Assembly (NCBI GenBank): GCA_048500355.1
Contig: JASNYD010000006.1
Coordinates: forward strand, 288,211 to 352,210
DNA from: Kofleriaceae bacterium
GTDB lineage: Bacteria > Myxococcota_A > Polyangia > Haliangiales > Haliangiaceae
DNA: 64,000 bases
Direction of reading: 5' to 3'
The notes beneath the pieces were generated by a model, which saw only the letters and a list, made by a program, of their open reading frames with translations, had not been told where the DNA came from and made no database searches. Shown piece after piece: positions 9,512-56,592 of this stretch. The position numbers were made by a program, and so were the translations under genes. How positions within the stretch are numbered: position 1 is the first letter of the stretch; every line of letters starts with the position of its first letter.

Positions 9512-9513
9512 TT

Positions 9514-9895: not shown

Positions 9896-9953
9896 CCCCG
9901 CCCGAGCGACGTAGGGCGCGATTCCTTCCCACCCTCCCAGGCGCGCGAAGCGG

Positions 9954-10582: not shown

Positions 10583-11875
<1,293 letters not shown>

Positions 11876-12060
11876 GGGAAGGCTCCGGGCGGTTCGAATG
11901 CACCCCATGGTACGGCAAGGGCTGGCAAACCCTTCCCGCCCCCGCGCTGATGATCCGGGAGTGAATCGGGCCCGAGCCCCCGGCCGGACTGGCCGGACCA
12001 CCGCCGGGCCTCACCGGCCGGTCGGGAGCCGCGTGCCCTCCCCTGCTAAGGTCCGGGGCC

Positions 12061-29567: not shown

Positions 29568-32597
<3,030 letters not shown>

Positions 32598-32967
32598 GGT
32601 GCGATCGGCGGGCGCGCTGCGACCGTCGGCGGGCGCCGGCGCGGGCCGCGCCGGCGCGGGCGCCGGCGCGGGGGACCGCGGCCGGGCCGACCGGGGGCGC
32701 CGACCGCGCCGCCGATCACCTGGGTCTTGTCGCTGGGCGCGGCCTTGCTTCCGTTGCTGTTCGGATCACTCATCGGGCACCGGGTGGGCTAGCGAGAACG
32801 GCAGAGGACGACCGCACGCGCGGTTCCCCCTTGTGGACCGCGGAGATAGTAGCGTGAACCTCGACGTAGATCGTGGGAAACGGGCGCTTTCCTCACGCGG
32901 CATCGGTAGGGTCGCTTACACACCGACGGGTAGCGAGTGAGCGCACACGCGCGCTACTGTCGCCGCG

Positions 32968-38676: not shown

Positions 38677-39741
38677 CCGCTGGCTCGATCGCTCGCTGGG
38701 ACACCTCGCTCGGCTCGAGGCGCCGCTCGACGACCTCGGCCGGGCCCGCCTCGAGGCCAGCCTCGAGCGCGCGCTCGACGACGTCGGCGCGGCGGCGCCT
38801 CGGCCGGCAGCCGGCGGCGCGGCCCGGCGCCGGCGCCGGCGCTGGCTGACCGTCGCGGCCATCGGCGTCGCGACCGTGACGCTCGGCGCGGCGGCCGCCG
38901 CCGTGCTCGAGCTCGGGCGCGCCGCCCCGCCGCGGCCGGCGCCCGCGTCGCCAGGAGCGGCGCCGGAGGAGCGGGGCGGGCCGGGCCGCGGACGGTCCCC
39001 GGCGGTGGGCGCGCCGGGCGAGGCGCCCAGCGAGCTGCCGGCGACCGCGCCCGACGAGCTGCCGGCGACCGCGCCCGACGAGCTGCCGGCGACCGCGCCC
39101 GACGAGCTGCCGGCGACCGCGACCGCGGCGCGCGCGCGCCTGGCGCGCCGGCTGCGCGCGCGCCCGACGCGACGGCGACGCGCGCGCCCGACGCGCGCCT
39201 GGCTCCCGCGCCGGGCGCCCCGGCGGCGCTCGCCCCGGCGCCGGGCACCACACCGGGCGGCGACGTCGAGACCGCCGCCGCGCTGTTCGAGCGCGCCGAG
39301 CGCGCCCTCGCCGCCGGCGATCGCGACGGGGCGCGGGCCGCGCTGCGACGGCTCCTCGATCGGTTCGCGGGCGAGCCGCTCGCCGACGACGCGCGCTACC
39401 AGCTCGCGCGCCTGGCTCGCCACGATCCACCGGCGGCCCTGGCCTACCTCGACGCCATCCGCAGCCCGTCGCTCGCCGAGCCTGCCGCCTTCCTGCGCTG
39501 CGCGGTCAAGGCCGACGCCGGCCACGCCGACGCCGCGACCTGCCTGGAGGCGTTCCGCCAGACCCACCCGCGCTCGGCCCACGGCGACGACGCGCTGCTG
39601 CGGCTGGCCGAGCTCCACTTCCGCCGCGGCGACTGCGCCGGCGCCGCTCCGCTCCTCGCCGACTTCCTGCGGCGCCACCCCGACCACGCCCAGGCCCGCG
39701 CCCGGCTCGCCCGCTGCCAGGATCCGGGCGCCGCGCGCTGA
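38669..39741 (+). CDS. Anti-sigma factor (N-terminal anti-sigma region, one TM helix, Ala/Pro linker with 4 x 30 bp tandem repeats, C-terminal TPR domain); the reading frame appears disrupted between about 38950 and 39180
   Basis: ATG overlaps the sigma stop by 8 bp. Frame A gives MSDRWLDRSLGHLARLEAPLDDLGRARLE...RRWLTVAAIGVATVTLGAAAAAVL (TM) ...ELPATAPD x4, then degenerates into Arg-rich junk. Frame C from about 39120 gives ...APDARLAPAPGAPAALAPAPGTTPGGDVETAAALFERAERALAAGDRDGARAALRRLLDRFAGEPLADDARYQLARL... (TPR) and ends with TGA at 39741. The frame switch is not resolved. Confidence 0.5.
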
Positions 39742-39830
39742 CGCGCCTCGCCCCCCAGCGCGGGGAGCGCGATGGCCGCGCGCGGGCGTCGCCTCATGCA
39801 CGCCGGCGTCGCCGGGCGTATGCTCGCACC

Positions 39831-40364
39831 ATGAGCGAGGCCGAGCGGTACGACGAGAGGCTCGCGGCGGCGCGCGCACACCCCGGGCTGGCGACGGCGA
39901 TGGCGACGCCGCCGACGACCTGGCTGACGCTCGCCGTCGTGGTCGTCGCGGGGATGGCGCTGTCGATCGTCCTCACCGTCACCTTCTATCCGTGGGACGA
40001 TCTCGACCGCATCCCCGAGGGCGTGCGCGCGATCCTGATGGTGTCGTGGCTGCCCACGATCGCCGCCTCGGTCGCCTCGCTCTGGCTCCTGATCGACGCC
40101 CTCCGCCTGGCCAGCCAGCCCACGCGCCACCTCCTGGCGGTCGCCGAACCCGGGCCGCGCGGGCCGGCGCCCTTCTTCCTGGACCTGGTCACCGAGGACG
40201 GCCAGCGCCACCGCTGCCGGGCCCGCCGCCGCGCGGCGTCGGTGGTCAAGCTCGGCCTGGTCACGCCGGGCGACGTCGGGATCGCCGTCTGCAAGGGCGA
40301 GGTCGTCGTCGAGTGGGTGCCGTTGCCTCCGGTGCCGGCCGGCCGCGTGTACGATCGGGTCTAG
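39831..40364 (+). CDS. Hypothetical membrane protein
   Basis: Two TM helices (WLTLAVVVVAGMALSIVLTVTF, AILMVSWLPTIAASVASLWLLI). 177 aa. Confidence 0.5.
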   Translation: MSEAERYDERLAAARAHPGLATAMATPPTTWLTLAVVVVAGMALSIVLTVTFYPWDDLDRIPEGVRAILMVSWLPTIAASVASLWLLIDALRLASQPTRHLLAVAEPGPRGPAPFFLDLVTEDGQRHRCRARRRAASVVKLGLVTPGDVGIAVCKGEVVVEWVPLPPVPAGRVYDRV

Positions 40365-40365
40365 C

Positions 40366-40495
40366 GCGGTCGGGCGCGGTCGGGCGCGGTCGGGCGCGGT
40401 CGGGCGCGGTCGGGCGCGGCAGGCGCGGCAGGCGCGGCAGGCGCGGTCTGGCGCGGCGGGCGCGGTCTGGCGCGGCGGACGCGGTCGGGCGCGCC
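40366..40495. repeat. 10-bp tandem microsatellite (gcgcggtcgg x6, gcgcggcagg x3, and degenerate units) between convergent genes
   Basis: Read directly: ctagcgcggtcgggcgcggtcgggcgcggtcgggcgcggtcgggcgcggtcgggcgcggcaggcgcggcaggcgcggcaggcgcggtctggcgcggcgggcgcggtctggcgcggcggacgcggtcgggcg. Confidence 0.7.
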
Positions 40496-40510
40496 GGGCG
40501 GTTCGACATC

Positions 40511-41695
40511 CTAGCCGCGGGCCGCGGCCTCGCGCAGGAGCGCGCGGGCGATGACCAGACGCTGGATCTCGCTGGTGCCCTCGTAGATGCGGGTGACGCG
40601 GGCGTCGCGGTACAGGCGCTCGACCGGGTAGTCGCGCGAGTAGCCGTAGCCGCCGTGGAGCTGGACCATGCGATCGACCACCCGGCCGCAGGTCTCCGAC
40701 GCGAAGAGCTTGGCCATGCTGGTCTCGGCCGCGGCCTTGTGGCCGGCGTCGAGCATGCGGGCGCCGCGCAGGGTGAGCAGCCAGGCGGCGTCGAGCTCGG
40801 TGCGGCTGTCGGCGAGCACGAACTGGGTGTGCTGGAAGTCGGTGAGCACCTGGCCGAAGGCGCGGCGCTCGCGCCCGTAGGCCAGGCCGCCGGCCAGCGC
40901 CGCCTCCGCCAGGCCCAGCGACAGGGCGGCGATGCCGAGCCGGCCCGCGCCCAGCGCCGACAGCGCGATGGCGTAGCCGCCGCCGCGCTCGCCGATCCGG
41001 TGCTCGTCGGGGACGCGGCAGTCCTCGAGGTGGAGCGCCACGGTGCCCGAGGCGCGCTGGCCCATCTTGTCCTCCTCCTTGCCGATCACCAACCCCGGGG
41101 TGCCGCGCTCGACCACGAAGGCGCTGATGCCGGTCGCGCCCGGGCCATCGCTGCGGGCGAAGACCAGGTGGAAGCCGGCGTGGGCGCCGCTCGTGATCCA
41201 CATCTTCGTCCCCGTCAGCACCCAGCCGTCGCCGTCGCGGCGGGCCGAGGTCGTCAGCGCCGCGGCGTCGGAGCCGCACCCCGGCTCGCTCAGCGCGAAG
41301 CTGGCCGGGCCGAGCAGGCCGCGGGCGTAGGGCGCCAGCCAGCGCGCCTTCTGCGCCGGGGTGGCGTGATCGGCGAGGATCCGCGCCACCAGGTTCGACG
41401 ACGCCAGCACCACCGCGGTCGAGGCGCAGGCCCCGGCGATCGCCTCCATGGCCAGGACGTAGCCGACGTTGTCGGCGCCGCCGCCGCCGTCCTCGAGCGG
41501 CACCTTCATGGCCAGCAGCCCGAGCTCGCCGAGCGCGCCGATCTCCTCGAGCGGGAAGCGGCCGTCGCGGTCGCGCGCCGCCGCGCGCGGCGCCAGCCGC
41601 CCGCGCGCGAAGGTGCGGGCGGTGGCCATGATCATGAGCTGCTCGTCGGTGAGGGACGGGTCGATCCGGGACAGCCTGGGGTCGGTGCCTGCCAT
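40511..41695 (-). CDS. Acyl-CoA dehydrogenase
   Basis: ACAD N, middle and C-terminal domain motifs are present (…[21 protein letters not shown]…[17 protein letters not shown]…[23 protein letters not shown]…). Confidence 0.9.
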
Positions 41696-41865
41696 CGTGC
41701 GCTCCTTGCCGGGATCCGGGTGCGCGCCGCGATCCGCGCCGGCGCCGCCCGCACGTCGACGCGCGGGTACGGCGGGCTGGAGGGTCGGCGCCTGGATCCG
41801 TATCTGCCCCAGGGGGCGCCGCCAGGGGAAGCCCCCCGCCTCCCGATCTTGACAGGTGAGCTGTC

Positions 41866-42372
41866 ATGATCCTCGATCGAGCGATGCGGTCGCGCCCCCC
41901 TCGCAAGCTGCGCAAGCGCCACGTCGGCGGTGAGCTCCGCGCGGTCGTCGACGAGACCATCGCCCTGTTCCATCGCGTGCGCTGGGTCGCCGAGCAGATC
42001 TACGGCGAGGAGGGACGCTCGACCGCGCGCCGCGGCATCCTGCGCGGCCTCGCCCGCTACGGCCCGCGCACGGTGCCCCAGCTCGCCCGCTCGCGCTCGG
42101 TGACCCGCCAGCACACCCAGAGCGTGGTCGACGAGCTCGCCGCCGCCGGCCTGGTGACGCTGGTCGACAATCCCGCCCACGCCCGCTCCCGCCTGGTCCG
42201 GATCACGCCCCGCGGCGCCGCCCTGGTGGCGCGCCTCGACGCGGTGGACGCCCGGGTCCTGGCCGCGATCGGCCACGGCCTGACCACGCCCGCCCTCGCC
42301 GTCACCGTGCGCACCCTGCGCGCCGTCCGCGAGGCCTTCGAGGACGAGGCCCGCTGGCGCGCCGCGCTGTGA
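41866..42372 (+). CDS. MarR-family transcriptional regulator
   Basis: Winged-HTH core GILRGLARYGPRTVPQLARSRSVTRQHTQSVVDELAAAGLVTLVDNPAHARSRLVRITPRGAAL. Divergent from the acyl-CoA dehydrogenase gene. Confidence 0.8.
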   Translation: MILDRAMRSRPPRKLRKRHVGGELRAVVDETIALFHRVRWVAEQIYGEEGRSTARRGILRGLARYGPRTVPQLARSRSVTRQHTQSVVDELAAAGLVTLVDNPAHARSRLVRITPRGAALVARLDAVDARVLAAIGHGLTTPALAVTVRTLRAVREAFEDEARWRAAL

Positions 42373-42610
42373 GCCCCGCCGCCGCCTCGGCCGGCCGCCG
42401 CCGTGCCGTACGCCTCGGCCGCCGCCGCCGCGCGCCGCCGCGGCGCCGCCGCGCGCCCACGCCCGATGTGGCGACTCAGCCAGCCGGTTGCCGCTCTGCC
42501 GGCGACGTCCGCCCGTTCGACCTCGCAGCGATTCCGACGCCGAGACGCCGCGAAGGCCCTGTCGGAGGTCCTCGACCTGCGCCAAACCTCCCAACGAACG
42601 GCGTCGGCAC

Positions 42611-42712
42611 GTCGGCCTTCGACACGCCCTCGCTGGCGCTCGGGCGGCTCAGGCCGACCGGAGAGATTGGCTCGCCGTTTGTTTCCCGCAACCTCCGACC
42701 GCGGTCGGTGAA
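42611..42712 (-). repeat. Second, inverted copy of the palindromic dispersed element seen at 9514-9895 (single unit plus tail)
   Basis: gtcggccttcgacacgccctcgctggcgctcgggcggctcaggccgaccggagag matches the reverse complement of 9841-9895 base for base. The following ...gtttcccgc..ctccgaccgcggtcggtg matches the repeat unit with a few substitutions. Confidence 0.75.
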
Positions 42713-42740
42713 GAGCTCAGGGTGTGCGGGTCTCTTCTGA

Positions 42741-43690
42741 TCCGGGTCCGAGCTCGGATCCGAGCCCGAGCCCGAATCCGAATCCGAGCCCGAATCCGAA
42801 TCCGAATCCGAGTCCGAATCCGAATCCGAATCCGAGCCCGAGACCGAGACCGAATCCGAATCCGAGTCCGAGACCGAATCCGAGCCCGAGACCGAGACCG
42901 AATCCGAGCCCGAGACCGAGACCGAATCCAGCCCGAGCCCGGATCCGAGCCCGAGACCGAATCCAGCCCGAGCCCGGATCCGAGCCCGAGCCCGGATCCG
43001 AGCCCGAGCTCGAAATCCGAGACCGAGTCCGAGACCGAATCCGAATCCGAGCCCGCGACCGAATCCGAGCCCGAGACCGAGACCGAATCCGAGACCGAAT
43101 CCGAATCCGAGTCCGAGACCGAATCCGAGACCGAGACCGAGACCGAATCCAGCCCGAGCCCGGATCCGAGCCCGAGCCCGGATCCGAGCCCGAGCTCGGA
43201 TCCGAGCCCGGATCCGAGCCCGAATCCGAATCCGAGCCCGAATCCGAATCCGAGACCGAATCCGAATCCGAGCCCGAATCCGAGCCCGGATCCGAGCCCG
43301 AGCCCGAGCCCGAGTCCGAGCCCGAATCCGAATCCGAGCCCGAGCCCGAGTCCGAGCCCGAATCCGAATCCGAGCCCGAGACCGAGTCCGAGCCCGACTC
43401 CGAGACCGAATCCGAGACCGAATCCGAATCCGAGCCCGAATCCGAATCCGAGCCCGAATCCGAATCCGAGCCCGAGCCCGGATCCGAGCCCGAGTCCGAG
43501 CCCGACTTCGAGACCGAATCCGAGACCGAATCCGAATCCGAGCCCGAATCCGAATCCGAATCCGAGCCCGAATCCGAATCCGAGCCCGAATCCGAATCCG
43601 AGCCCGAATCCGAATCCGAGCCCGAATCCGAGCCCGAATCCGAATCCGAGCCCGAATCCGAATCCGAGCCCGAGACCGAATCCGAGCCCG
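42741..43690. repeat. ~950 bp hexanucleotide microsatellite (CCGAGC/CCGAAT/CCGAGA-type units, about 155 units) in an intergenic region
   Basis: Direct reading shows tccgagcccgaatccgaatccgagcccgagaccga... continuously. Every translation frame switches between [18 protein letters not shown] (or on the other strand GFGLGL, SDSG) motifs, so unit-level indels break any single frame. This is interpreted as non-coding. Confidence 0.85.
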
Positions 43691-43699
43691 AACGCTCCG

Positions 43700-43940
43700 G
43701 GCCCCGCGCCGCCGGTGCACGCCGTGCCTCGGCTCGAATCGGCGGATGTCGGGGCGCCCCGCGCGGCCGGTGCACGCCGTGCCTCGGCTCGAATCGGCGG
43801 ATGTCGGGGCGACCGGGCCCCGCGCGGCCGGTGCACGCCGTGCCTCGACTCGAATCGGCGGATGTCGGGGCGCCCCGTGCCGCCGGTGTACGCCGTGCCT
43901 CGGCTCGAATCGGCGGATGTCGGGGCGCCCGGCCCCGCGC
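43700..43940. repeat. Four tandem copies of a ~57-62 bp unit (ccggtgcacgccgtgcctcggctcgaatcggcggatgtcggggcgccccgcgcgg)
   Basis: The unit is read directly four times with small variations (units begin near 43712, 43768, 43830, 43885). A short gcgaggcgccgc duplication follows. Confidence 0.75.
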
Positions 43941-44005
43941 CTGGGCGAGGCGCCGCCCCGCGCCGGGCGAGGCGCCGCGCGGCGGATGGCCAGGCGTCCG
44001 GCGCG

Positions 44006-45208
<1,203 letters not shown>

Positions 45209-45217
45209 GTCAGCCGA

Positions 45218-47266
<2,049 letters not shown>

Positions 47267-47329
47267 GGCGCGGCCGGCGCGTTGTACGCGAACCCCGGCG
47301 GGGGCGCAAACCCGCAGGGCCCCGGCCGG

Positions 47330-47776
47330 TCAGGGCCGGCGCCGGCGCGAGCGCACGACCATCGCCGCCGGCAGGACCCCGTCGGCCTCGAGCGCCCGCA
47401 GCCGCTCGCCGAGCGGGCGCAGGACGGCCAGGCGCGCCGGATCGGCGGCGTGGGCCTCGCACAGGGCGGAGTGGCGCTCGCGGGCGGTCTCGTCGGGGTA
47501 GTCGCCGGGGTGGGCGAGGACGTGGGCCAGGGCGCAGACCGCGGCGCGGAAGGCGAGGTCCTCGCTCACCTCCCCACCGGCCCCGGCCCCGCCGCCCGCG
47601 GCGCCCGGCCCGGCCGCCCCGCCGGCCGCGGCGTCCCCACGCAGCCCGCCCGCGCCGCCCGCTCCGTCGTCGGACGAGCCCCCGGCCGCCGCCAGCGCCC
47701 GCGCGGCCTCGACGTCACCGCGCTCGGCGCGCTCCACCAGCGCCACGAGCGCGTCGAGATCGCGACCGGCCACCAC
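47330..47776 (-). CDS. Possible small hypothetical protein with a Gly/Ala low-complexity centre
   Basis: MVAGRDLDALVALVERAERGDVEAARALAAAG...EDLAFRAAVCALAHVLAHPGDYPDETARERHSALCEAHAADPARLAVLRPLGERLRAL. The termini look protein-like but the call is weak in this GC context. Confidence 0.3.
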   Translation of the reverse strand: MVAGRDLDALVALVERAERGDVEAARALAAAGGSSDDGAGGAGGLRGDAAAGGAAGPGAAGGGAGAGGEVSEDLAFRAAVCALAHVLAHPGDYPDETARERHSALCEAHAADPARLAVLRPLGERLRALEADGVLPAAMVVRSRRRRP

Positions 47777-47825
47777 CCGCGGAGCGTAGCGCGTCCGGGC
47801 GACGCCGTCCGGTAGCGGTGGGGGA

Positions 47826-48665
47826 TCAGTCGAGGTCGCGGCGGACCGAGAGCACGCCGGCCACGTCCATGCGCTCGGCGCCCGCCACCGGCAGGCCGGC
47901 GGCCAGCTCGACCCGCCACAGGCCCTTGACCCGCCAGTGACCGCCGCCGCGCAGCGCCAGGTGATCGAGGCCCCAGCCGTACCAGCCGGCCTGCACGTCG
48001 GCGCCGGCGAACAGCGCCAGCCAGCGGACGGGGCGCGCGGTGAGATCGACCGAGGCCAGGGCCGCCGCCCGCCCGGTGCGGCCGCTGGTCGACGACGCGT
48101 ACCAGCCGAGCGCGCCGGCGTGGCCGTGCAGGCGCACGCGCGGGGCCAGGAGCCAGGTCACGCCGGCCCCGACGAGGAGCCCGCCCGAGCTGCTGTCGAG
48201 GCGCGAGCGCGTGAACGGCACCTCGACCCGGGCGTGGAGCGCGCGCACGAACGGCCGGCCGGCCAGCACGCCGTCGCCGCCCCACGCCACGTGCGCGCCG
48301 AGCGGACCGTAGCCGAGCTCGTCGACGGCGAGCACCGCGTTCTGCACGAACACGGCGTCGACCGCGCGCAGCGAGAAGCCCCACTCCAGGCCCCACTCCT
48401 CGAGCAGGCGGATCTGCACCGTCGCGTCGCCGCCGAGCGTGCCGTAGAAGTCGGGGGTGTCGACGAGCGCGCGCGCGCCCAGGCGTACCGCGACGTCGGC
48501 GTGGAGGCAGCCGCCGCGCCCGCCGTCGATGCCGCTGTCGCGCCACGGCAGGGTCACCGGATCGTCGATGTGCTCGGCGCACGGCGCGGTGGCCTCGAGG
48601 TCGGCGGCGGCCGGCGCGCTCGCGCCGAGCACCACCAGCGCCGGCAGGAGCCGCCGCGCCCTCAC
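47826..48665 (-). CDS. Secreted/outer-membrane beta-barrel-like protein, GTGA-coupled to the upstream PHP-domain lipoprotein
   Basis: GTG at 48665 overlaps the upstream stop. The signal peptide is RRLLPALVVLGASAPAAADLEA. An alternating hydrophobic/aromatic strand pattern follows (…GWYGWGLDHLALRGGGHWRVKGLWRVELAAGL…). Confidence 0.5.
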   Translation of the reverse strand: MRARRLLPALVVLGASAPAAADLEATAPCAEHIDDPVTLPWRDSGIDGGRGGCLHADVAVRLGARALVDTPDFYGTLGGDATVQIRLLEEWGLEWGFSLRAVDAVFVQNAVLAVDELGYGPLGAHVAWGGDGVLAGRPFVRALHARVEVPFTRSRLDSSSGGLLVGAGVTWLLAPRVRLHGHAGALGWYASSTSGRTGRAAALASVDLTARPVRWLALFAGADVQAGWYGWGLDHLALRGGGHWRVKGLWRVELAAGLPVAGAERMDVAGVLSVRRDLD

Positions 48666-51592
48666 CGCTGCCCTCGCGGCGGGGTCCAGCCGTCGCCGCC
48701 GACGTCGACGAGCAGCGGGCTGGTGAAGCCGATGGGCCAGCTCTCGGGCACGATCCGGGTCATGTGGAAGCGGCGGTCGGTGGGCGCGATCGGATCGGGC
48801 GGGTTGAGGATGGGCCCCACGTCGTCGTCGTCCTCGGCGTCCTCGACGTCGGCCCGGTCGACGTCGCCGTCGCCGTCGTTGTCGCCGGTGTCGAGGACGC
48901 CGTCGCCGTCGAGATCGGCGTACGGCGGCGGCGCCAGGCCGGCCTCGATGACGAGCCAGTCGTCGCCCCCGCCGGGGACGAGGTCGGCGAGCGCGACCTC
49001 GCCCTGCCAGCGCACGACGCCGGCGGCGCCGAAGGGATCGGCGGGCGCCGGCAGGTCGCGCACCAGCACGCGCTCGCCGGCCGAGGTCACGACCCGGACC
49101 TCGTCGACGGGGATCCACGGCGCGGCGCGGACGGTGATGGCCACGACGTCGCCGGCCACCGGCACCACCGGCTCGAGGCCGAGGCCGCGGCGGGGCGCGC
49201 CCGACGGGCCGATCGCGACCTCGATGAACACCCCGGTGCCGGCGACCGCGCGCCCGGCGCGCAGCGCGGCGTTGAAGCTGGCGGCGGTGACCTCGCCGAC
49301 GGTGCCGCCGGTCTCGACCCAGGTCCGGCCCCAGCCGAGCTGGTTGTCGCGCAGCCCGTGCGAGTCGCTCGCCGCCACCCCCGGCACCGGGTGGCCGGCG
49401 GAGATCAGCGCGAACCACAGCGGCCGGGTCTTGGCCCACTCGTCGGCGCCGGCGCCGTTCTGCACCTCCATGACGTCCCAGTCGAGGTTCTGGCGGCCGC
49501 CGCCGGGCCGGCGCAGCAGCGCGCCGTTGCCGCCGGCGGCGGGCGCGGCCGGCAGGCCCTGGCGCGGATCGAACCCGATCGCGCGCAGGTAGCCGAGGTC
49601 GCGTCCGAACTGGGTCTCGTCCCACGGGTGGTTGATCATGATGACGCCGTCGGGGCCCATCATCGGCCCCAGGCGATCGAAGAGCTGGCCGGGCTCCAGC
49701 CGCTCGTCCCAGGGCGCGCCGCCGCGCGGCTCGCCGGGGACCGCGGGGAGCGGCCAGAAGTTGAAGTGGCCGATGACCCGCGGCAGGTCCTCGCCGGGCA
49801 GCTCGAGCCAGGGGATGAGCTGCGTGGTCTCGAGGCCGCCCATCACCAGCAGCCGGTCGGCCACGCCCAGTGCGGCCAGGGCGTCGTCGTACTCGCCGAT
49901 CGCGTCGTGATCGGTGGCGGCGATGACGTCGATGCCGGCGGCCACGAACGAGCGTACGCGATCGAGGTCGGGGAGGCCCGAGTCGAACGAGCGGCGGCCG
50001 TGGACGTGGAGATCGGCGCCCAGCCAGCCGGCCGGACGCACGGGCAGCGCGGTCAGCGCCAGCTCGTGGCTGGCGATCTCGCCGCCGACCAGCGTGACCT
50101 CGACCCGGGCCAGCGTGGCGTCGGGGCCGGCGCTGGCGTAGAGCCAGTAGCGTCCGGGCGGCGCCTCGACCTCGGTGCCGGCGGGATCGACGAGCACGCG
50201 GTTGCAGGCCGGCGACGCGCCGTCGGGCGGACCCAGCCACGGCGCGCACGGCGTCAGGCGGCCGTGCAGCGAGCCCCGCACCGCGGCGCGGGTGGCGTCG
50301 TCGGCGGGCTCGACCACGACCACGGCGTGGACCGGCGCCGGGATCCCGCCGCCGTCGTCGAGCGTGACCGCGAGCTGGAGCGTCGCCGGCGGGTCGATCG
50401 CGAGCTCGCCGACCGCGCCGTCGGCGGCGACCGGGCCCTCGGCCACCTTGCGGCCGAAGCTCCACAGCTCGTACGCCAGCGAGGTGCCGAACGGGACCGC
50501 GGCGCGGAACGTGCCATCCGCCGCCGGCACCACGGCGGCGACCGGGACCCGCTCGGCGCCCGCCACCACCATCAGCGAGGCGCGGCGCACGTCGCCGCCC
50601 CAGCCCAGGCCACCGGCGGTGACCCGGCCGTTGACGACGATCGCGCCGCGGTCGCCGTGGACCTGGGCGCGCGCCGCCAGCGCCGCGGTGATGGCGGGGG
50701 CCGGGCCGGCGCCGCCGGTGCCGGGGCCGGCGGCGACGAGGAAGCGCTCGAACACCACGGCGTCGCCGGGACGGACCAGCTTGAGGTCGGTGCCGAGCGC
50801 GGTGATCTCGAGATCGGCCACGCCGTGGACCTGGGGCTGGCTGCATGCGATCACCGCGTAGGACGGGGCGAGGGCGTCGGGGGTGGCGGCGGCGACGTAG
50901 CGATACGGCGACCACAGCGCCGTCAGCTTGAGCAGATCGAGCTCGGGCTGCTGGTAGCCCTGCCCCGCCACCGGCGTGAACGGGACCCCGCGCCGCTTGC
51001 CGAGGTGGACCGCGTCGGCGATCACGAAGGCCTGCGCGTACGGCGAGGCGTTCCACAGCTCGCTGTGCACGCGCAGCCCGGGATCGCAGGTGTGGAGCTC
51101 GTAGCGGGTGGCGACCTTCACGTCGCGCCGTCCGTCGAGGTGGCCGCGCACCACCACCGCCACGAACTCGGGGCTGCGGTCGATCACCTCGAGCTCGGTG
51201 TAGGCGAAGGCGTCGGCGGGCAGGATCCCGGCGAGCTGGTACGACAGCGTCAGATCGTCGCGACCGCCGGCCGGACCCAGATCGATCAGCGTGCCGCCGG
51301 TGGGGGCCAGGTCGATGGGCGCGTCGAGCTCGTTGATGACCGCGGTGACGACCCCGTTGGACAAGGCGATGGCGCGCGCCGAGCCCTCGGCGAGCTCGAG
51401 ACGCAGCTCGGCCGGCAGCGTGGCGTGGGCGCCGATGTGGAGGCGGGGCGCCGCGCACTCGATCTCGAGCTGCGGGCACGGCCGGGTGGCCTCGCAGTCG
51501 CCGCCGAGGCAGCTCGAGCGCTGACAGGCGAGCTGCGCGCTCGCGAGGCCGAGCGCCGTCACCACCGGTACGACCACCTCGACCCTGGGCAC
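48662..51592 (-). CDS. Large secreted lipoprotein containing a PHP-type metal-dependent phosphoesterase (CehA/McbA-like) domain and an acidic Asp-rich C-terminal region
   Basis: GTG at 51592 gives VPRVEVVVPVVTALGLASAQLAC (lipobox). The PHP motifs are ADLHVHGRRSFDSG ... IDVIAATDHD ... and a downstream His cluster (HFNFW, INHPWDE, DSHGL). Calcium-binding-like DxDxDG repeats lie near the C-terminus (DLDGDGVLDTGDNDGDGDVD). Confidence 0.65.
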   Translation of the reverse strand: MPRVEVVVPVVTALGLASAQLACQRSSCLGGDCEATRPCPQLEIECAAPRLHIGAHATLPAELRLELAEGSARAIALSNGVVTAVINELDAPIDLAPTGGTLIDLGPAGGRDDLTLSYQLAGILPADAFAYTELEVIDRSPEFVAVVVRGHLDGRRDVKVATRYELHTCDPGLRVHSELWNASPYAQAFVIADAVHLGKRRGVPFTPVAGQGYQQPELDLLKLTALWSPYRYVAAATPDALAPSYAVIACSQPQVHGVADLEITALGTDLKLVRPGDAVVFERFLVAAGPGTGGAGPAPAITAALAARAQVHGDRGAIVVNGRVTAGGLGWGGDVRRASLMVVAGAERVPVAAVVPAADGTFRAAVPFGTSLAYELWSFGRKVAEGPVAADGAVGELAIDPPATLQLAVTLDDGGGIPAPVHAVVVVEPADDATRAAVRGSLHGRLTPCAPWLGPPDGASPACNRVLVDPAGTEVEAPPGRYWLYASAGPDATLARVEVTLVGGEIASHELALTALPVRPAGWLGADLHVHGRRSFDSGLPDLDRVRSFVAAGIDVIAATDHDAIGEYDDALAALGVADRLLVMGGLETTQLIPWLELPGEDLPRVIGHFNFWPLPAVPGEPRGGAPWDERLEPGQLFDRLGPMMGPDGVIMINHPWDETQFGRDLGYLRAIGFDPRQGLPAAPAAGGNGALLRRPGGGRQNLDWDVMEVQNGAGADEWAKTRPLWFALISAGHPVPGVAASDSHGLRDNQLGWGRTWVETGGTVGEVTAASFNAALRAGRAVAGTGVFIEVAIGPSGAPRRGLGLEPVVPVAGDVVAITVRAAPWIPVDEVRVVTSAGERVLVRDLPAPADPFGAAGVVRWQGEVALADLVPGGGDDWLVIEAGLAPPPYADLDGDGVLDTGDNDGDGDVDRADVEDAEDDDDVGPILNPPDPIAPTDRRFHMTRIVPESWPIGFTSPLLVDVGGDGWTPPRGQR

Positions 51593-51686
51593 GGGAATAA
51601 TCGTAGCCGAACTGCCGTCACGGCCGCGCGGCGGTGAACCGATATCGGCGGTCGCGTGGGCCGATCCGGCGTGCGATACGTGAGCC

Positions 51687-52661
51687 ATGCGCGCCTGGCG
51701 AGTCCATGCCCACGGTCAGCACAGGGACGTGCTGCGCCTCGAGGAGGTCCCGGCCCCGGAGCCGCCGGTGGGGGGCGCGGTGGTGCGGATCGAGGCCGCC
51801 GCCCTCAACTTCCCCGACCTCCTGAGCATCGCCGGCCAGTACCAGGTCAAGGCGCCGCTGCCGTTCACGCCCGGCATCGAGGCCGCGGGGACCGTGATCC
51901 GCGCCGGCGACCGCAGCCGCCATCGGGTCGGTGACCGCGTCATCGTCAGCGCACCGTGGGGCGCGTTCGCCGACGAGCTCGCGGCGCCCGACGCCCAGCT
52001 CCTGCCGTGGCCGGCGGGGCTGACCGCGGCCGAGGCGGCGAGCTTCGTCGTCACCTACCACACCGGCCACCTCGGCCTCGTCCACCGCGCGCGGCTGCGC
52101 GCCGGCGAGACCGTGCTGGTCCACGGCGGCGCCGGCGGCGTCGGCATCGCCGCGATCCAGCTCGCGAAGGCGAGCGGCGCGACGGTGATCGCGACCGCCG
52201 GGACCGACGACAAGCTGACGGTGTGCGCGGCCGCCGGCGCCGACCACGTCGTCAACTACCGCGGCGCCGACTGGGTGAGCGCGGTCAAGGCGCTGACCGG
52301 CGGCCGGGGCGCCGACGTCATCTACGACCCGGTGGGCGGCGACGTCTTCGATCAGAGCCTGCGCTGCCTGGCGTGGGAGGGGCGGCTCCTGGTCATCGGC
52401 TTCGCCTCGGGGCGCATCCCCGAGCTCAAGCTCAACCGCGTGCTGCTCAAGAACGTCGACGTCATCGGCCTGTACTGGGGCGCCTACCAGCACCACGACC
52501 CGGCGCGGGTGACCGCCACCCACGCCGCCCTGTGCGATCTGGTCGCCGCCGGCGCCTGCCGGCCGCTGATCTGGAAGGAGCTGCCGCTGGCCGAGCTACC
52601 CGCGGCCCTGACCGCCCTCGAGAGCCGGGAGAGCCACGGCAAGATCGCCGTCGTGCCCTGA
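51687..52661 (+). CDS. NADPH:quinone oxidoreductase / zinc-type alcohol dehydrogenase-like (MDR superfamily)
   Basis: GroES-like N-terminal domain and a Rossmann motif LVHGGAGGVGIAAIQLAK. The Qor-like length is 324 aa. Confidence 0.85.
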   Translation: MRAWRVHAHGQHRDVLRLEEVPAPEPPVGGAVVRIEAAALNFPDLLSIAGQYQVKAPLPFTPGIEAAGTVIRAGDRSRHRVGDRVIVSAPWGAFADELAAPDAQLLPWPAGLTAAEAASFVVTYHTGHLGLVHRARLRAGETVLVHGGAGGVGIAAIQLAKASGATVIATAGTDDKLTVCAAAGADHVVNYRGADWVSAVKALTGGRGADVIYDPVGGDVFDQSLRCLAWEGRLLVIGFASGRIPELKLNRVLLKNVDVIGLYWGAYQHHDPARVTATHAALCDLVAAGACRPLIWKELPLAELPAALTALESRESHGKIAVVP

Positions 52662-54167
52662 GGTCCCGCGCGACGCCCCGGCCGCGGCGAGCGCGGGCGC
52701 GGTGGCCGCCGCGGTGGCGGGCGCCGGCGCCCGGTCGGCGCCGCCGAACCGCAGCGCGATGGCGTGGCGACGGAAGCCGAAGATCCGGGTCAGCATCGGC
52801 CGCACCACCAGGCGGTGGGCGAGCGCGCCCAGCGGCCCCAGGGGCGGCGCGTAGAGCACGCGATCGATCATCACCGTCCGATCGCCGTCGGCGACGAAGC
52901 GGTGCTCGTGCCACCAGCTCCGGTACGGGCCGCGGTGCTGGGCGTCGACGAACCCCTGCCCCGGCTGCCACGCCTCGATCACCGTGCGCCAGCGCAGGGG
53001 CACGCCGGCGACGCGCAGGCCGTAGTCGATCACCGTGCCGGGGGCCATGGCGATGGGGCGCGGCGTCAGGATCTCGAAGCCCAGCGCCGGCGGCGTGAGC
53101 AGCTCGAGGTTGGCGGCCTCGGCGAAGAACGGGAAGACCTCGGCGAGCGGCGCCGCCAGCTCGGTGCGGGTCTCGAGCACGTAGCGGGGGCGCCGCGTCG
53201 CCAGGTAGGGCGCCGCGGGCAGCGGCGTGGTGGCGTCGACGCGCGCGATGCGCACCGCGGCGGCGCCGGCGGCGAGGTCGGCCACGGCCGACGCCAGGGT
53301 GGTGAAGGCGAAGCGGAAGCCGCGCGCGAGCGCCGCCGCCGGCGCGCAGCGCTGGCTCGCCAGGAGCAGCTCCGCCCGCGCCCCGAGCACGGCGCGCAGG
53401 GCGACCGCCGGCGCCGGCAGGGGCGCGGCGCCGCCGAGGGCGGTGGCCACCGCCCGGGTCAGGGTCGCGTTGTCGACCGGGGTCGGCGCCACCGCGTTGA
53501 CCGGGCCGCGCCAGCGCGCGTCGCCGAGCGCGACCACGATCAGCTCGACCAGGTCGGCGAGGTGGATCCACGACATCCACTGCCGCCCCGAGCCGAGGCG
53601 GCCGGCGACCCGCGCCCGCGCCAGCGGCGCCAGGCGGGCGAGCACGCCGCCCTCGGCGCCGAGGACGATGCCGGTGCGCAGGAGCACCGTGCGCGCCGCG
53701 GGCACCCGCGCCGCCGCCGCCTCCCAGTCGGCGCACAGCTCGGCGGCGAAGCCGGCGCCCGGCGCCGCGCGCTCGTCGAGGACCTCGTCGCCGCGGTCGC
53801 CGTAGATCCCCACCGCGCTGCCGGAGATCAGCACCGGCAGCGGGCGCGGCCGGGCGGCGGCCGCCGCCGCCAGCGCCGCGGTCACGCCGACCCGGCTGGC
53901 GCGCAGCGCGCGGCGACGGGCCGCGGTCCACCGGCGGTCGGCGATGGGCTCGCCGGCGAGGTTGACCACGGCGTCGGCCTCGGCCATCGCCGTGGCCAGC
54001 GCCGCCCCGTCGCCGGCCGCGACCAGCTCGACGTCGGGGCCGAGCCGGCGCCGGGCGCGGACCGGATCCCGGACCAGCGCGGTGACGCGGTGGCGATCGC
54101 GGGCCAGGCGGAGCAGGAGGGCGCGGCCGATGAAGCCGGTGGCGCCGGTGACGAGGACGCGCATCAT
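52596..54167 (-). CDS. TIGR01777-type NAD-dependent epimerase-family protein (SDR39U1/DUF1731) fused to a C-terminal SRPBCC (polyketide-cyclase-like) domain
   Basis: ATG at 54167 gives MMRVLVTGATGFIGRAL (Rossmann GxxGxxG). DUF1731-like C-terminal segment, then an SRPBCC-like segment (...YVLETRTELAAPLAEVFPFFAEAANLELLTPP...WRTVIEAWQPGQGFVDAQHRGPYRSWWHEHRF...). The 3' end overlaps the quinone-oxidoreductase gene on the other strand by about 66 bp. Confidence 0.7.
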   Translation of the reverse strand: MMRVLVTGATGFIGRALLLRLARDRHRVTALVRDPVRARRRLGPDVELVAAGDGAALATAMAEADAVVNLAGEPIADRRWTAARRRALRASRVGVTAALAAAAAARPRPLPVLISGSAVGIYGDRGDEVLDERAAPGAGFAAELCADWEAAAARVPAARTVLLRTGIVLGAEGGVLARLAPLARARVAGRLGSGRQWMSWIHLADLVELIVVALGDARWRGPVNAVAPTPVDNATLTRAVATALGGAAPLPAPAVALRAVLGARAELLLASQRCAPAAALARGFRFAFTTLASAVADLAAGAAAVRIARVDATTPLPAAPYLATRRPRYVLETRTELAAPLAEVFPFFAEAANLELLTPPALGFEILTPRPIAMAPGTVIDYGLRVAGVPLRWRTVIEAWQPGQGFVDAQHRGPYRSWWHEHRFVADGDRTVMIDRVLYAPPLGPLGALAHRLVVRPMLTRIFGFRRHAIALRFGGADRAPAPATAAATAPALAAAGASRGTSGHDGDLAVALPALEGGQGRG

Positions 54168-54832
54168 GCACCTCCGCGCTGGCGCAGGAGCGCCGCGACC
54201 TCGGCGCGCGCGGCGGCGTCGGACCTCCACGCGCCGCGCCAGGCGACCGTGGTCATGGTCGCCTCGGGCTGCCGGACGCCGCGCACGGTCATGCACAGGT
54301 GCGTGCTCTCGAGCTGGACGCCGACCGCGCCGGCGCCCAGGTGGTGGGCGATGGCGTCGGCGATCTGCGCCGTCAGCCGCTCCTGCACCTGCGGCCGGCG
54401 GGCCAGGACCTCGACGGTGCGCGCCAGCTTGGACAGGCCGACCACCCGCCCCTCCGCCGGCAGGTAGGCGACGTGGGCGCGGCCGGAGAACGGCAGGAGG
54501 TGGTGCTCGCACAGCGAGTGGAAGCCGATGTCGCGCACCACCACCAGCTCGTCGGTGCCCTCGGCGAAGACCCGGGCCAGGTGGCGGCCCGGGTCGTCGC
54601 GGAGCCCGGCGGTCAGCTCGGCGAAGGCGCGGGCGACCCGGGCCGGGGTGTCGCGCAGGCCCTCCCGCGCCGGGTCCTCGCCGAAGGCGAGGAGCAGCTC
54701 GCGGACGGCGCGCTCGGCGCGGGCGTGATCGAAAGGACGGAGGGCGGGGCCGGCGCGATCCTCGTCGAGCTCGTCGAGCCCGGCGCGCGCGACCGGCGCG
54801 ATGGCGGTGTGGAGCGAGATGGGTGGCGTCAC
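54164..54832 (-). CDS. folE: GTP cyclohydrolase I (FolE)
   Basis: Canonical FolE motifs: DTPARVARAF ... SLCEHHLLPFSGRAHVAYLP ... VQLESTHLCMTVRGV. Its stop overlaps the ATG of the downstream epimerase-family gene (ATGA). Confidence 0.9.
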   Translation of the reverse strand: MTPPISLHTAIAPVARAGLDELDEDRAGPALRPFDHARAERAVRELLLAFGEDPAREGLRDTPARVARAFAELTAGLRDDPGRHLARVFAEGTDELVVVRDIGFHSLCEHHLLPFSGRAHVAYLPAEGRVVGLSKLARTVEVLARRPQVQERLTAQIADAIAHHLGAGAVGVQLESTHLCMTVRGVRQPEATMTTVAWRGAWRSDAAARAEVAALLRQRGGA

Positions 54833-54918
54833 GGCGCCTATGACGAGGCCGCGCGCCGCGACGGTACAGACGATCTGCGCGCGACGGATCGATCGCCGAC
54901 CGGGTCCGGACGGCGCGC

Positions 54919-55017
54919 CGGCCGCGCCGTCGAGGTTCGACCGCGGCGCCCCGGCCGCGCCGTCGAGGTTCGACCGCGGCGCCCCGGCCGCGCCGTCGAG
55001 GTTCGACCGCGGCGCCG
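54919..55017. repeat. Three tandem 33-bp direct repeats (ggccgcgccgtcgaggttcgaccgcggcgcccc), each with an imperfect internal palindrome, in the folE / DUF4397 divergent intergenic region
   Basis: Read directly. gcgccgtcga..tcgaccgcggcgc forms an imperfect hairpin within each unit. Confidence 0.7.
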
Positions 55018-55170
55018 GCGACGGTCCGCGATCGTTCCCGTCGAGAATCGACGCCGCGCGCGAAACCTCCGCGCCCGATCGCGACGTCGTAGCGGCGGTT
55101 CGTGGCCGCGCGAATGCGCGCGGGGCCGCGACCCCTAGCCCGAGCCTCGCCCTTTCCCGACGGAGGAACC

Positions 55171-56592
55171 ATGCGCCCGACCCGCTTCGCGATCCCCCTC
55201 ACCCTCGCGTTCGCCGCGCCCCTGGCGGCGTGCGGCGACGACGACGCCACCGACCCGCAGCCCGACACCGCGCGCCTGCGCGTGGTGCACGCCTCACCCG
55301 ACGCCCCCGCCGTCGACATCTACGCCCAGGGCGTGGCCACGCCGCTGGTGACGAACCTCGCCTACGGCCAGGTCACGCCGTACCTCGAGCTCGACGAGGG
55401 CACGTACACCCTCGAGCTCCGCGCCGCCGGCGCCACCGGCGCGCCGGCCTTCACCACCGGCCCGCTGTGGGTCGGCGACGACAAGGCCTACACCGCGGTG
55501 GCCGCCGGCTTCCTGGCGTCGACCGCCGACGCCGATCGGTTCCGCGTCCTCGCGCTCGAGGAGGGCTTCACCGCCCCCGGCGCCGATCAGGTCGCGGTGC
55601 GCGTCGTCCACGCCGCCGCCGACGCGCCCACCGTCGGCATCGACGTCGGCGCCGACGACCCGGCCAACCCGGAGGTGCCGTCGCTGGCCCGCTTCGCCGA
55701 CACCGGCGCCGCCGGCATCGCCCTGCCCGCCGGCCAGCCGCTGCGCATCGGCATCGCCGCCGGCGGCGCCACCGTCACCAGCTTCAGCGCGCCCGCCCTG
55801 CCCGGCGGCGCCGAGCTGTTCGTGATCGCGATCGGGCGCCTCGGCGATCTGCCGCGTCAGCCCACCGGCTTCTCGCTCGCCGCCATCGGCGACGCCGGTC
55901 TGGTCGGCATCCTGGCCCAGGACCCGACGGTGTACGCGCTCCACGCCTCGCCCGACGCCCCCGACGTCGACGTCCGGGTGGCGGCCAACGACGCGCTCCT
56001 GATCGGCGACCTCGGCTACGGCGAGCTGCGCGGCGTCCAGGTGCCGCCCGGCTCGTACGAGCTGGACTTCTACGCCGCCGGCAGCGCGCCCGGCACGCCC
56101 GCGGCCTCGGCCCAGGTCCCGGGCCTCGCCGCCGGCCAGCGCTACCTCGCCGTGGCCACCGGCTTCCTCGCCCCCGGCAGCGGCGAGCCCGGCTTCCAGC
56201 TCATCGCGGTCGCCGACGAGCTGGCGATCGACGCCAGCGGCGCGCGCCTCGGCGCGATCCACGCCTCGCCCGACGCGCCCGCCGTCGACATCGCCACCGC
56301 CACCGGCCAGGTGATGGACTCGCCGGCCCTGGTCGCCGGCCTGGCGTTCGGCGCGGCCGCCGCCGGCGCGGGCCTCGAGGTGCCGGCCGCGAGCCTGCGG
56401 GTCGGCGTGGCCGCCGCCGGCCAGTCCACCGCGGTCGCGACGTTCGACGTCACGACCGTCGACGGCCTGCGCGCCTTCGCCGTCGCCACCGGCGCGCTGG
56501 CGCCGGCCGCCGGCCGCCAGCCCTTCCGCCTGACGATCGTCGACACCTCCGCCTCGCCGTGGACGGCGACCGCGATCGCGCCCAACCCGTGA
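55171..56592 (+). CDS. DUF4397 domain lipoprotein
   Basis: GGAGG 6 nt upstream of the ATG. MRPTRFAIPLTLAFAAPLAAC is a lipobox. Four repeats of the DUF4397 signature (RVVHASPDAPAVDIY / RVVHAAADAPTVGIDV / YALHASPDAPDVDVRV / GAIHASPDAPAVDIA). Confidence 0.7.
   Translation: MRPTRFAIPLTLAFAAPLAACGDDDATDPQPDTARLRVVHASPDAPAVDIYAQGVATPLVTNLAYGQVTPYLELDEGTYTLELRAAGATGAPAFTTGPLWVGDDKAYTAVAAGFLASTADADRFRVLALEEGFTAPGADQVAVRVVHAAADAPTVGIDVGADDPANPEVPSLARFADTGAAGIALPAGQPLRIGIAAGGATVTSFSAPALPGGAELFVIAIGRLGDLPRQPTGFSLAAIGDAGLVGILAQDPTVYALHASPDAPDVDVRVAANDALLIGDLGYGELRGVQVPPGSYELDFYAAGSAPGTPAASAQVPGLAAGQRYLAVATGFLAPGSGEPGFQLIAVADELAIDASGARLGAIHASPDAPAVDIATATGQVMDSPALVAGLAFGAAAAGAGLEVPAASLRVGVAAAGQSTAVATFDVTTVDGLRAFAVATGALAPAAGRQPFRLTIVDTSASPWTATAIAPNP

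Follow-up and report, generated by a model that had tools for sequence, protein, structure and literature searches.

The stretch of DNA analysed here (the window) comprises 64,000 nucleotides of contig JASNYD010000006.1 from a Kofleriaceae bacterium (assembly GCA_048500355.1), with a G+C content of ~75%. Our subject is a gap at positions 42373-44005 of the window, in which a dispersed stem-loop element, a long hexamer array and a minisatellite lie between two convergent genes, MarR_2 on the left and Pkinase on the right. An earlier sequence-only reading of the window had reported a 1.6-kb gap between convergent MarR and kinase genes, and the gene coordinates and Pfam matches confirm it. The gap is real non-coding DNA, not a gene or a dedicated machine. 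It had been described as composed almost entirely of three repeat classes. All three are present close to the positions given for them and are not explicable as chance matches; two further repeats and ~130 bp of unique sequence (42464-42593) share the gap with them. The features were delimited with Tandem Repeats Finder (TRF), pattern matches, self-comparison and folding; GC3 denotes the G+C content of third codon positions, and REP the repetitive extragenic palindromic elements of bacteria.

41866-42372, plus strand: MarR-family regulator gene, left flank (Pfam MarR_2, E=4e-9; GC3 0.94-0.98)
42376-42463: GC-rich (CCG)-like imperfect repeat, just past the MarR stop codon (TRF periods 3, 13, 24 and 27)
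42594-42729, plus strand: REP-like element with modules C-A-B (pattern match, self-comparison)
42594-42612, plus strand: module C (ACGAACGGCG...), by pattern match; forms an 11-nt inverted repeat with 42673-42683
42613-42656, plus strand: module A, a ~44-nt stem-loop with the core CCTTCGACACGCCCTCGCTGGCGCTCGGGCGGCTCAGG at 42616-42653
42693-42722, plus strand: module B, with the perfect 14-nt palindrome CCGACCGCGGTCGG at 42695-42708
42723-42743, plus strand: junction of module B and array (GTGTGCGGGTCTCTTCTGATCC), conserved in the related contigs L150 and L066, less so in L022
42744-43690: imperfect compound hexamer array (TRF and unit parse)
42772-42812 and ~43526-43566: left and right copies of a 41-nt direct repeat bounding a 754-bp segment missing in contig L001
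42924-43155: block with frame-breaking units (GAATCC-AGCCC at 42924, 42959 and 43145; GAGCTCGAAATCC at 43006)
43697-43941: locus-specific 55/61-bp minisatellite, 4.2 copies (TRF)
43932-44005: 22-bp repeat and GC-rich hairpin block, abutting the kinase stop codon (TRF; fold of the kinase-sense RNA)
44006-45208, minus strand: Ser/Thr protein kinase gene, right flank (Pfam Pkinase, E=8e-35; GC3 0.92-1.0)

We regard it as probable that this non-coding, repeat-built DNA is a mosaic element resembling REPs and bacterial interspersed mosaic elements (BIMEs), with a built-in slippage-prone microsatellite that has expanded here, at a synteny breakpoint. The kinase homologues carry Kofleriaceae names and one orthologous contig is labelled Haliangiaceae, genus UBA2376, which assigns the organism to the Myxococcota; the kinase orthologues range from 97 to 66% identity. 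At orthologous loci where the kinase is 82%, 81% or 76% identical, synteny holds for the genes upstream of it, and the next gene follows 28-150 bp past the kinase, with no MarR gene, acyl-CoA dehydrogenase gene or long gap. By this comparison the gap is located at a synteny breakpoint, and what it contains is evolutionarily young. At the 82% locus (L151, 6197-6330) an inverted pair of short CTCGGG/CCCGAG-type arrays stands directly after the kinase stop codon and folds to a hairpin of about -80 kcal/mol, which may be the ancestral state of the site.

The hexamer array and its length variation

The array had been described as a hexanucleotide microsatellite of ~950 bp at 42741-43690. Position and length stand, and the description is refined to an imperfect, compound array. 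TRF places it at 42741-43691 with period 6 and 158.8 copies (score 727), and scores a period of 18 more strongly (815); the 18-bp period sequence is GATTCGGATTCGGGCTCG. The units, about 158 in number, have the form GARNCC on the plus strand, which is GGNYTC on the minus strand. They abut head to tail at a length within 1-6 bp, as in a simple sequence repeat (SSR). A unit parse gave ~152 units, 143 of them of 6 nt, including GAATCC (55), GAGCCC (47), GAGACC (23), GAGTCC (8) and GGATCC (8). Four units break the frame, three of 5 nt and one of 7 nt; those of 5 nt all fall within a block that has been duplicated, its copies giving exact repeats at offsets of 186 and 221 bp. Exact internal repeats reach 64 bp at most, self-identity is best at lag 18, and GAATCCAGCCCGAGCCCGGATCC is an example of an interior k-mer. 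The CcrM/HinfI-type motif GANTC has 67 of its 110 window sites inside 42744-43690 (70.7 per kb), and its density outside the array is 0.68 per kb vs 2.1 per kb expected from base composition. A role of the array as a GANTC methylation sponge was considered; arrays in other genomes are often built of units without GANTC.

Contig L001 (ENA ERZ27309507, with a k141-style name) overlaps positions 39212-55241 of the window and shows zero single-base differences over ~15 kb, the sole differences being the copy numbers of three tandem repeats. Its hexamer array measures 193 bp vs 947 bp in the window, the 10-bp repeat at 40364 is shorter by 20 bp (two units), and the 33-bp repeat at 54918 is shorter by 33 bp (one unit). 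According to an exact prefix/suffix walk, the L001 array is the window array minus the single 754-bp segment bounded by the 41-nt direct repeat, and this difference takes out all four frame-breaking units. The missing segment may reflect a real deletion or else a shortcut of the assembler at low k; for the two small repeats real copy-number variation seems likelier, because they are short (137 and 106 bp in total). The first of them (10/19-bp units, GCGCGGTCGG, ~13.5 copies at 40364-40500) lies immediately downstream of the acyl-CoA dehydrogenase gene, and the second (33-bp units, 3.2 copies at 54911-55016) lies between the genes for GTP cyclohydrolase I and a DUF4397 protein.

A further allele is found on contig L150 (ENA ERZ3604713), a close relative, which shares 98.1% nucleotide identity with the window over 6.3 kb and encodes a kinase 97% identical. 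Past the same stop codon it contains one partial 55-bp unit, ~8 GGGCTC units (48 bp) and then REP-like modules, and the 22-bp repeat and hairpin block of 43932-44005 is missing. The array alleles of the three assemblies thus measure ~48 bp (L150), 193 bp (L001) and 947 bp (window), the two shorter ones coming from short-read assemblies. The series, which comes from the comparison of related strains that had been suggested, supports the earlier view of the gap as a hotspot for slippage, recombination or assembly error; the contigs with the 193-bp and 947-bp alleles differ at zero single-nucleotide polymorphisms (SNPs). On the assembly side, short-read contigs break inside the repeats of the gap: the Logan contigs of SRR9305633 end within the 55-bp repeat at one edge and within module A at the opposite edge. 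A look-up with the MarR gene yielded no additional contig spanning the array.

It is unlikely that the length of the array is an assembly artefact, in which the true array would be short, like the 193-bp array of L001, and the 947 bp of the window inflated or mis-joined, or in which the true array would be longer. That the only other contig crossing the array, L001, is 754 bp shorter without SNPs elsewhere would fit such an artefact, as would the breaking of the Logan contigs in the 55-bp repeat and module A. However, the array contains locus-specific variants and nested block duplications, which are not inventions of an assembler, and no exact internal repeat exceeds 64 bp. The single 754-bp segment with its 41-nt bounds fits a shortcut or a real deletion in L001 better than inflation in the window, and the differences at the two short tandem repeats suggest real variation between near-identical strains.

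The third repeat class, described earlier as four ~60-bp tandem units at 43700-43940, is indeed present, with 4.2 copies at 43697-43941, in which units of 55 and 61 bp alternate; TRF alternatively scores it as 2.1 copies of a 116-bp unit. Its proposed membership of a wider repeat family found no support, as the 55-bp unit has no further copy in the window, more than 140 fetched loci, the JGI metagenomes or the viral contigs. The 98% relative L150 holds one partial copy vs 4.2 in the window, and the minisatellite would have arisen by local tandem duplication of a sequence that is single-copy in this close relative. At the other end of the gap, TRF resolves the (CCG)-like repeat of 42376-42463 into three units of 24-27 bp, overlapped by GC-rich inverted repeats.

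The hexamer array, by comparison, has many counterparts. A degenerate array pattern matched at least 120 loci in species-representative genomes, which answers the suggestion that the array be searched for elsewhere. Among the matches listed, about a third of the genomes are Myxococcota, and the loci belong mostly to Myxococcota and Planctomycetota. The multi-locus genomes among them are PRO4, JAXMNT, JAYZQJ and JAYVSF (Myxococcota) and CAZMSZ and JAJDCP (Planctomycetota), and one Thermoanaerobaculia metagenome-assembled genome (MAG; Acidobacteriota) has two loci. The window array is the longest among these listed matches, followed by arrays of 630, 426 and 396 bp, all in PRO4, and those in long-read assemblies measure at most 185 bp; the region had been called unusual in size and repetitiveness for a bacterium, and in this comparison it is.

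In a crude flank test, 17 of 128 arrays lay in genes; all of these are 48-288 bp long and keep the frame, and they are read in frames that differ by gene, as (DS)n, (ES/EP)n, (NP)n or (GF)n. The reading of the same repeat in several frames in different genes points to an origin at the DNA level. Examples of in-gene arrays, read as (NP/SP)n, (DS)n, (EP)n or (GF)n with codons rare for these high-GC genomes, are L013 (312-599, PRO4 MAG), L018, L031, L071, L094, L106 and L118. Intergenic arrays stand between convergent (24), tandem (38) or divergent (13) genes in roughly random proportions, and such mixed contexts lend no support to a single regulatory role. The 630-bp array (L113, 2788-3606, PRO4 MAG) has no frame-breaking unit and lies past the stop codon of a 677-aa gene; it ends 34 bp before the ATG of a same-strand 174-aa membrane-protein gene and so occupies the place expected for the promoter or 5' leader of that gene.

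Folding differs sharply between the two strands of the array. The units GGATTC and GGGCTC are near-palindromes, and the G/T-rich strand can therefore pair with itself by G.U or G.T pairs, which the C/A-rich strand cannot. For 43151-43690 the minus-strand RNA folds at -395 kcal/mol (z=-17.9) vs z=-1.4 for the plus strand; as DNA the z-scores are -8.7 (minus) and +4.1 (plus). The folds of the rest of the gap, 42373-42745 (z=+0.96) and 43690-44010 (z=-2.35), are not informative. The (GGGCUC)n run of L150 likewise folds on itself right after the kinase stop codon. In Rfam scans, the whole window gave no match at gathering thresholds, and relaxed searches of both repeat loci (the gap and the second locus described below) returned only noise from eukaryotic microRNA models far below threshold.

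The stability of these kinase-sense folds (z=-17.9 for the array, z=-2.35 for 43690-44010) could be taken as the mark of a selected cis-acting element, that is, a giant hairpin terminating or stabilising the 3' end of the kinase transcript, a device insulating the convergent genes from each other or a small RNA (sRNA) gene. Strong hairpins of this unit type also stand immediately behind the kinase stop codon in L150 and L151, and REPs can act as 3' hairpins that terminate or stabilise transcripts (PMC3733652). Nevertheless, we consider a selected function of this kind quite doubtful. The self-complementarity is inherent in the unit sequence and does not require selection, the orientation of arrays at other loci is not biased to the structured strand, and a few units suffice for a hairpin, as in L150, which leaves ~158 units unexplained. 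In addition, a canonical terminator, a promoter and an Rfam family were all missing in the scans.

A mosaic family of stem-loop modules

A palindromic dispersed element had been reported at 42611-42712. The element is real, and only its extent changes, to 42594-42729 with modules C, A and B. Against positions 9784-9897 on the other strand it aligns over 114 nt at 89% identity, including 50 nt that are exact, and none of 100 shuffles gave a match. This alignment leads to a second locus of the same repeat family, without a hexamer array, at 9510-9953 on the minus strand (TRF period 66, 3.8 copies at 9592-9850). There the exact 50-nt copy over module A is at 9834-9883 on the minus strand, module A heads 4-5 tandem units of 66-69 bp with module B (9510-9897), and three more copies of module B lie at 9549-9738 on the minus strand. 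The second locus, like the first, is flanked by convergent coding regions, here with GC3 values of 0.99 and 0.95.

Four modules, A to D, were defined for the mosaic family. Module A has 44 copies, distributed over the window, the MAG "uncultured delta proteobacterium PRO4" (CAADGB01) and 24 short contigs of one metagenome series; of the 13 loci fetched from the PRO4 MAG, 8 contain it. The modules combine with hexamer arrays (HEX) in varied order and orientation, namely D-HEX-D-C-A-B-HEX in L022, B-A-C-D-HEX in L099, A'-HEX-D in L088 and C-A-B-HEX in the window. An alignment of 28 copies of module A supports a two-stem hairpin of ~44 nt with 14 pairs, in which 94% of the alignment cells pair vs 27-48% with slid partners, and RNAalifold gives the same fold independently. 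Four pairs show compensatory change, one of them occurring as G-C in 19 copies, C-G in six and U-A in one, and one copy has two inner-stem pairs swapped.

These properties agree with those of REPs and BIMEs: a stem-loop palindrome, dispersed extragenic copies, a site between convergent open reading frames (ORFs) and the mosaic mixing of motifs. REPs are mostly situated downstream of genes, between ORFs that converge or run in the same direction, and their super-families are defined by GTAG or CGTC tags (PMC3733652). Within the 8 nt before the stem of module A, a GTAG tag was found in none of 43 copies and a CGTC tag in three of 43; the usual sequence there is TTGTCGGCC, whose GTC belongs to the stem. 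Neither the scan of ~35 window ORFs nor the gene calls of related loci yielded a transposase family. Viral contigs contained no match to module A, which leaves a phage origin without support. Searches of the literature on hexamer repeats or REPs in myxobacteria, and on this repeat sequence, found no prior description.

Contigs fetched by module A alone provide a sample that is unbiased toward arrays. When only those copies are counted whose contig extends far enough downstream, ~40% of this sample have a hexamer array at most 260 bp away on that side; over all copies of module A, an array lies downstream in 19 and upstream in three. In the A' subfamily, represented by five copies from at least three loci, the array starts at the same base, after ...CTCGTTGCTTGATGAGAG. 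The sequence that follows module B and precedes the array, ...CTCAGGGTGWGCGGGTC..., is common to the window, L150 and L066 and less clear in L022, and L066 is a different, non-orthologous locus just after the stop codon of a membrane-protein gene. These conserved junctions at non-orthologous loci leave two options: the array travels with the element whenever it is copied, or the element brings only a seed of a few units, which then expands separately at every site. The unit composition of the arrays varies from locus to locus, showing that each of them evolves locally. The anticipated repeat family elsewhere thus exists, in that palindromic element and hexamer array recur together in related genomes with conserved junctions. 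Shared modules flanking arrays are clear only in the lineage of the window and PRO4; they may be present in one planctomycete MAG, and in five other genomes the arrays share no flanks, from which it follows that the modules do not generate arrays in general.

This last point bears on the idea of a mobile composite element that acquires its hexamer tail through a dedicated mechanism, for instance slippage of a reverse transcriptase or a transposase-linked polymerase on its template; such a tail would be similar to the microsatellite tails that some eukaryotic retroposons carry. Module and array do recur with conserved junctions at non-orthologous loci and in two subfamilies, and the array is nearly always on one side of module A (19 downstream, three upstream). 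We nevertheless hold such an element to be very improbable: genomes without the modules commonly have arrays of this type, and the five multi-locus genomes share no flanks; the orientation of the array relative to module A varies; neither transposase nor reverse transcriptase was seen in the window or among the called genes of related loci; and a seed of 2-3 units inside the module, together with ordinary slippage, explains the conserved junctions equally well.

Coding potential and overall interpretation

The reading of the gap as gene-free stands on several tests. GC3 reaches at most 0.84 in any frame of 42373-44005 vs 0.92-1.0 in the flanking genes, and is flat on either side of the array. 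All six frames of the array are stop-free, because the hexamer units contain no stop codons. The four units of odd length shift the register, so that a single frame reads successively as PNPS, RIRA, EPES and RDRI peptides. The GAA and GAT codons that the array would use are rare in a genome with a GC3 of ~0.96. The unit lengths of the minisatellite, 55 and 61 bp, are not divisible by three. No start codon with coding-like sequence was found upstream of the array, a test for a low-complexity repeat protein gene found no uninterrupted frame with a start and coding-type composition, and the independent gene call on the same locus of L001, which likewise contains the 168-aa MarR gene, has no gene inside the gap. 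The coherent ORF across the gap that would speak for a gene was looked for in the sequence, and frame breaks and GC3 argue against it. CRISPR was ruled out, since the hexamer and 55-bp units abut without spacers; no cas-type family turned up in the Pfam scans.

An unannotated gene or gene remnant for a low-complexity repeat protein, with (Asp/Gly-Ser)n on the minus strand or (Glu-Pro/Ser/Thr)n on the plus strand, like Ser-Asp surface proteins, would have in its favour the six stop-free frames, the in-gene arrays read elsewhere as DS, ES/EP, NP or GF, the resemblance of the 18-bp period GATTCGGATTCGGGCTCG to the staphylococcal Sdr/Clf 18-bp Ser-Asp unit, and the annotation of a related MAG that extends the kinase ORF into the gap (P0121); it can be dismissed as barely credible, because the four frame-breaking units split any one frame into three different peptides, an upstream start with coding-like sequence is missing and GC3 stays flat to the left and right of the array, unit lengths of 55 and 61 bp do not keep a triplet frame, the L001 gene call is empty in the gap, and the P0121 extension stems from a frameshift inside the coding repeat of the kinase.

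This coding repeat, an in-frame repeat of 9/18 bp at 44097-44145 inside the kinase gene, forms an Ala/Gly-rich tail of the protein. The 97% orthologue P0001 is nine residues longer. P0121 (MBE7452003.1, Kofleriaceae MAG) is annotated with 543 aa; its frame shifts near the repeat, and the reading continues past the kinase stop codon, across the 55-bp repeats and on to where the hexamer array begins.

Other features of the window touch the gap less directly. In one frame, a 24-bp tandem repeat at 39023-39125 (4.3 copies, 96% identical) would read ...APDELPAT.... Inside the DUF4397 gene, at 55269-56292, a 52-nt repeat occurs four times, 71-87% identical and at a spacing of 318-333 bp, and probably represents repeated protein domains. 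On the minus strand, 29568-32765 encodes a large fusion protein of a Ser/Thr kinase domain and a Novel STAND NTPase 1 domain (nSTAND1, E=9e-119), and 10583-12010 a protein with an eCIS_core domain; both are neighbours conserved at related loci.

For the gap itself we favour the following course of events. A lineage-specific C-A-B stem-loop element lies at the synteny breakpoint, behind the 3' ends of both convergent genes, and the element of this family would carry a short hexamer array, or a seed of one, at a fixed junction. Fold-back of the G/T-rich strand would then favour slipped-strand mispairing and recombination between the internal direct repeats, so that the array could grow and shrink quickly and would here have reached ~158 units. 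Unit variants, block duplications and frame-breaking indels would accumulate, as expected in the absence of constraint. We infer that hairpin-driven slippage is the cause of array growth and that the region is selectively near-neutral; at most, it may provide the kinase transcript with a very stable 3' hairpin region serving as a terminator or an exonuclease block, as REPs do.

Several points weigh against this interpretation of the gap. The comparison alleles are all from short-read metagenome assemblies, which can collapse repeats, and the length series may partly be an artefact; coverage of L150 is only ~5x, so that collapse is possible there, and the 947-bp length comes from the window assembly and no other. 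The covariation in module A consists of few independent events, among copies related by descent. No sigma-70-like promoter site was found at the gap, although the sigma-70 consensus may not suit this phylum, and the stretch 41700-44300 contains no canonical intrinsic terminator, stable hairpins without a U tract being present. Finally, in tandem contexts 24 arrays are in GARNCC sense and 14 in GGNYTC sense, and this lack of a preferred orientation to the upstream gene argues against a general function as a 3' hairpin.

Beyond this locus, we would venture only tentatively that GARNCC/GGNYTC quasi-palindromic arrays form a separate class of DNA, self-folding and expandable, which is enriched in Myxococcota and Planctomycetota; that they arise at the DNA level and are then tolerated or recruited as protein linkers in several frames and as intergenic hairpins; and that in this Haliangiales lineage they have become an integral, copy-number-variable part of a REP-like mobile mosaic element. 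If so, they would be a bacterial counterpart of the mobile elements that carry and spread microsatellites. The reading of one DNA repeat as DS, ES/EP, NP and GF linkers suggests that low-complexity protein segments in these phyla originate, in some cases, as microsatellites at the DNA level.

To our knowledge, a kilobase of simple repeat is rarely tolerated in bacterial genomes, and the locus shows one forming at a synteny breakpoint, with graded alleles of 48, 193 and 947 bp. If confirmed with long reads, it would offer a sensitive strain marker for an uncultured Haliangiales population and a natural system for hairpin-driven repeat expansion in bacteria. On the practical side, such repeats break or collapse short-read assemblies, and they have already yielded a mis-extended kinase annotation in a public MAG (P0121).

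Comparison with known repeat systems

The closest likeness is to REPs and BIMEs. Like these, the family in the window is made of short stem-loop modules with extragenic copies, mixed with other motifs, sometimes in tandem and downstream of genes. In contrast to them, it lacks the GTAG/CGTC tag, its module A (~44 nt) has two nested stems, no gene for a REP-associated tyrosine transposase (RAYT) was seen among the ~35 window ORFs scanned and the gene calls of related loci, and it carries hexamer microsatellites, which classical REPs do not.

The BOX elements of Streptococcus pneumoniae, with the structure boxA-(boxB)n-boxC, and the mycobacterial interspersed repetitive units with a variable number of tandem repeats (MIRU-VNTRs) share with our family dispersed intergenic modules and a central tandem repeat whose copy number varies between loci and strains. 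A BOX-like layout fits L088 and L022, and the array of the window ends without a module D. However, the variable part here is a quasi-palindromic unit of 6 bp rather than 45-100 bp, in up to ~158 copies, and the end modules are unrelated to those of BOX in sequence.

As regards simple repeats, the array resembles bacterial SSRs and VNTRs in its short head-to-tail units and in a copy number that differs between near-identical strains, for which slipped-strand mispairing is the accepted mechanism. Repeats that drive phase variation are short and switch genes on and off from promoters or the 5' ends of ORFs, whereas the window array is imperfect, ~950 bp long and situated between the 3' ends of two genes, where it cannot switch either ORF. 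Hairpin and slipped structures have been linked to repeat instability by slipped-strand mispairing, and hexanucleotide repeats are rare in Escherichia coli K-12 (PMC7015867). In mechanism only, the array is comparable with (CTG)n/(CAG)n repeats, in that one strand folds with wobble or mismatched pairs, the other does not, and the length is unstable; it differs from them in its hexamer unit and bacterial host.

The Ser-Asp repeats of the staphylococcal Sdr/Clf genes have a unit of 18 bp, and on the minus strand the 18-bp period of the array, GAT TCG GAT TCG GGC TCG, would read Asp-Ser-Asp-Ser-Gly-Ser; related in-gene arrays of other genomes are likewise read as (DS)n. Unlike the Sdr/Clf repeats, the array here stands outside any ORF, with four frame breaks and no signal peptide or anchor context. 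The REP/BIME-like mosaic element itself is undescribed, and the gap as a whole is an unusually large example of known bacterial repeat kinds rather than a new kind of system.

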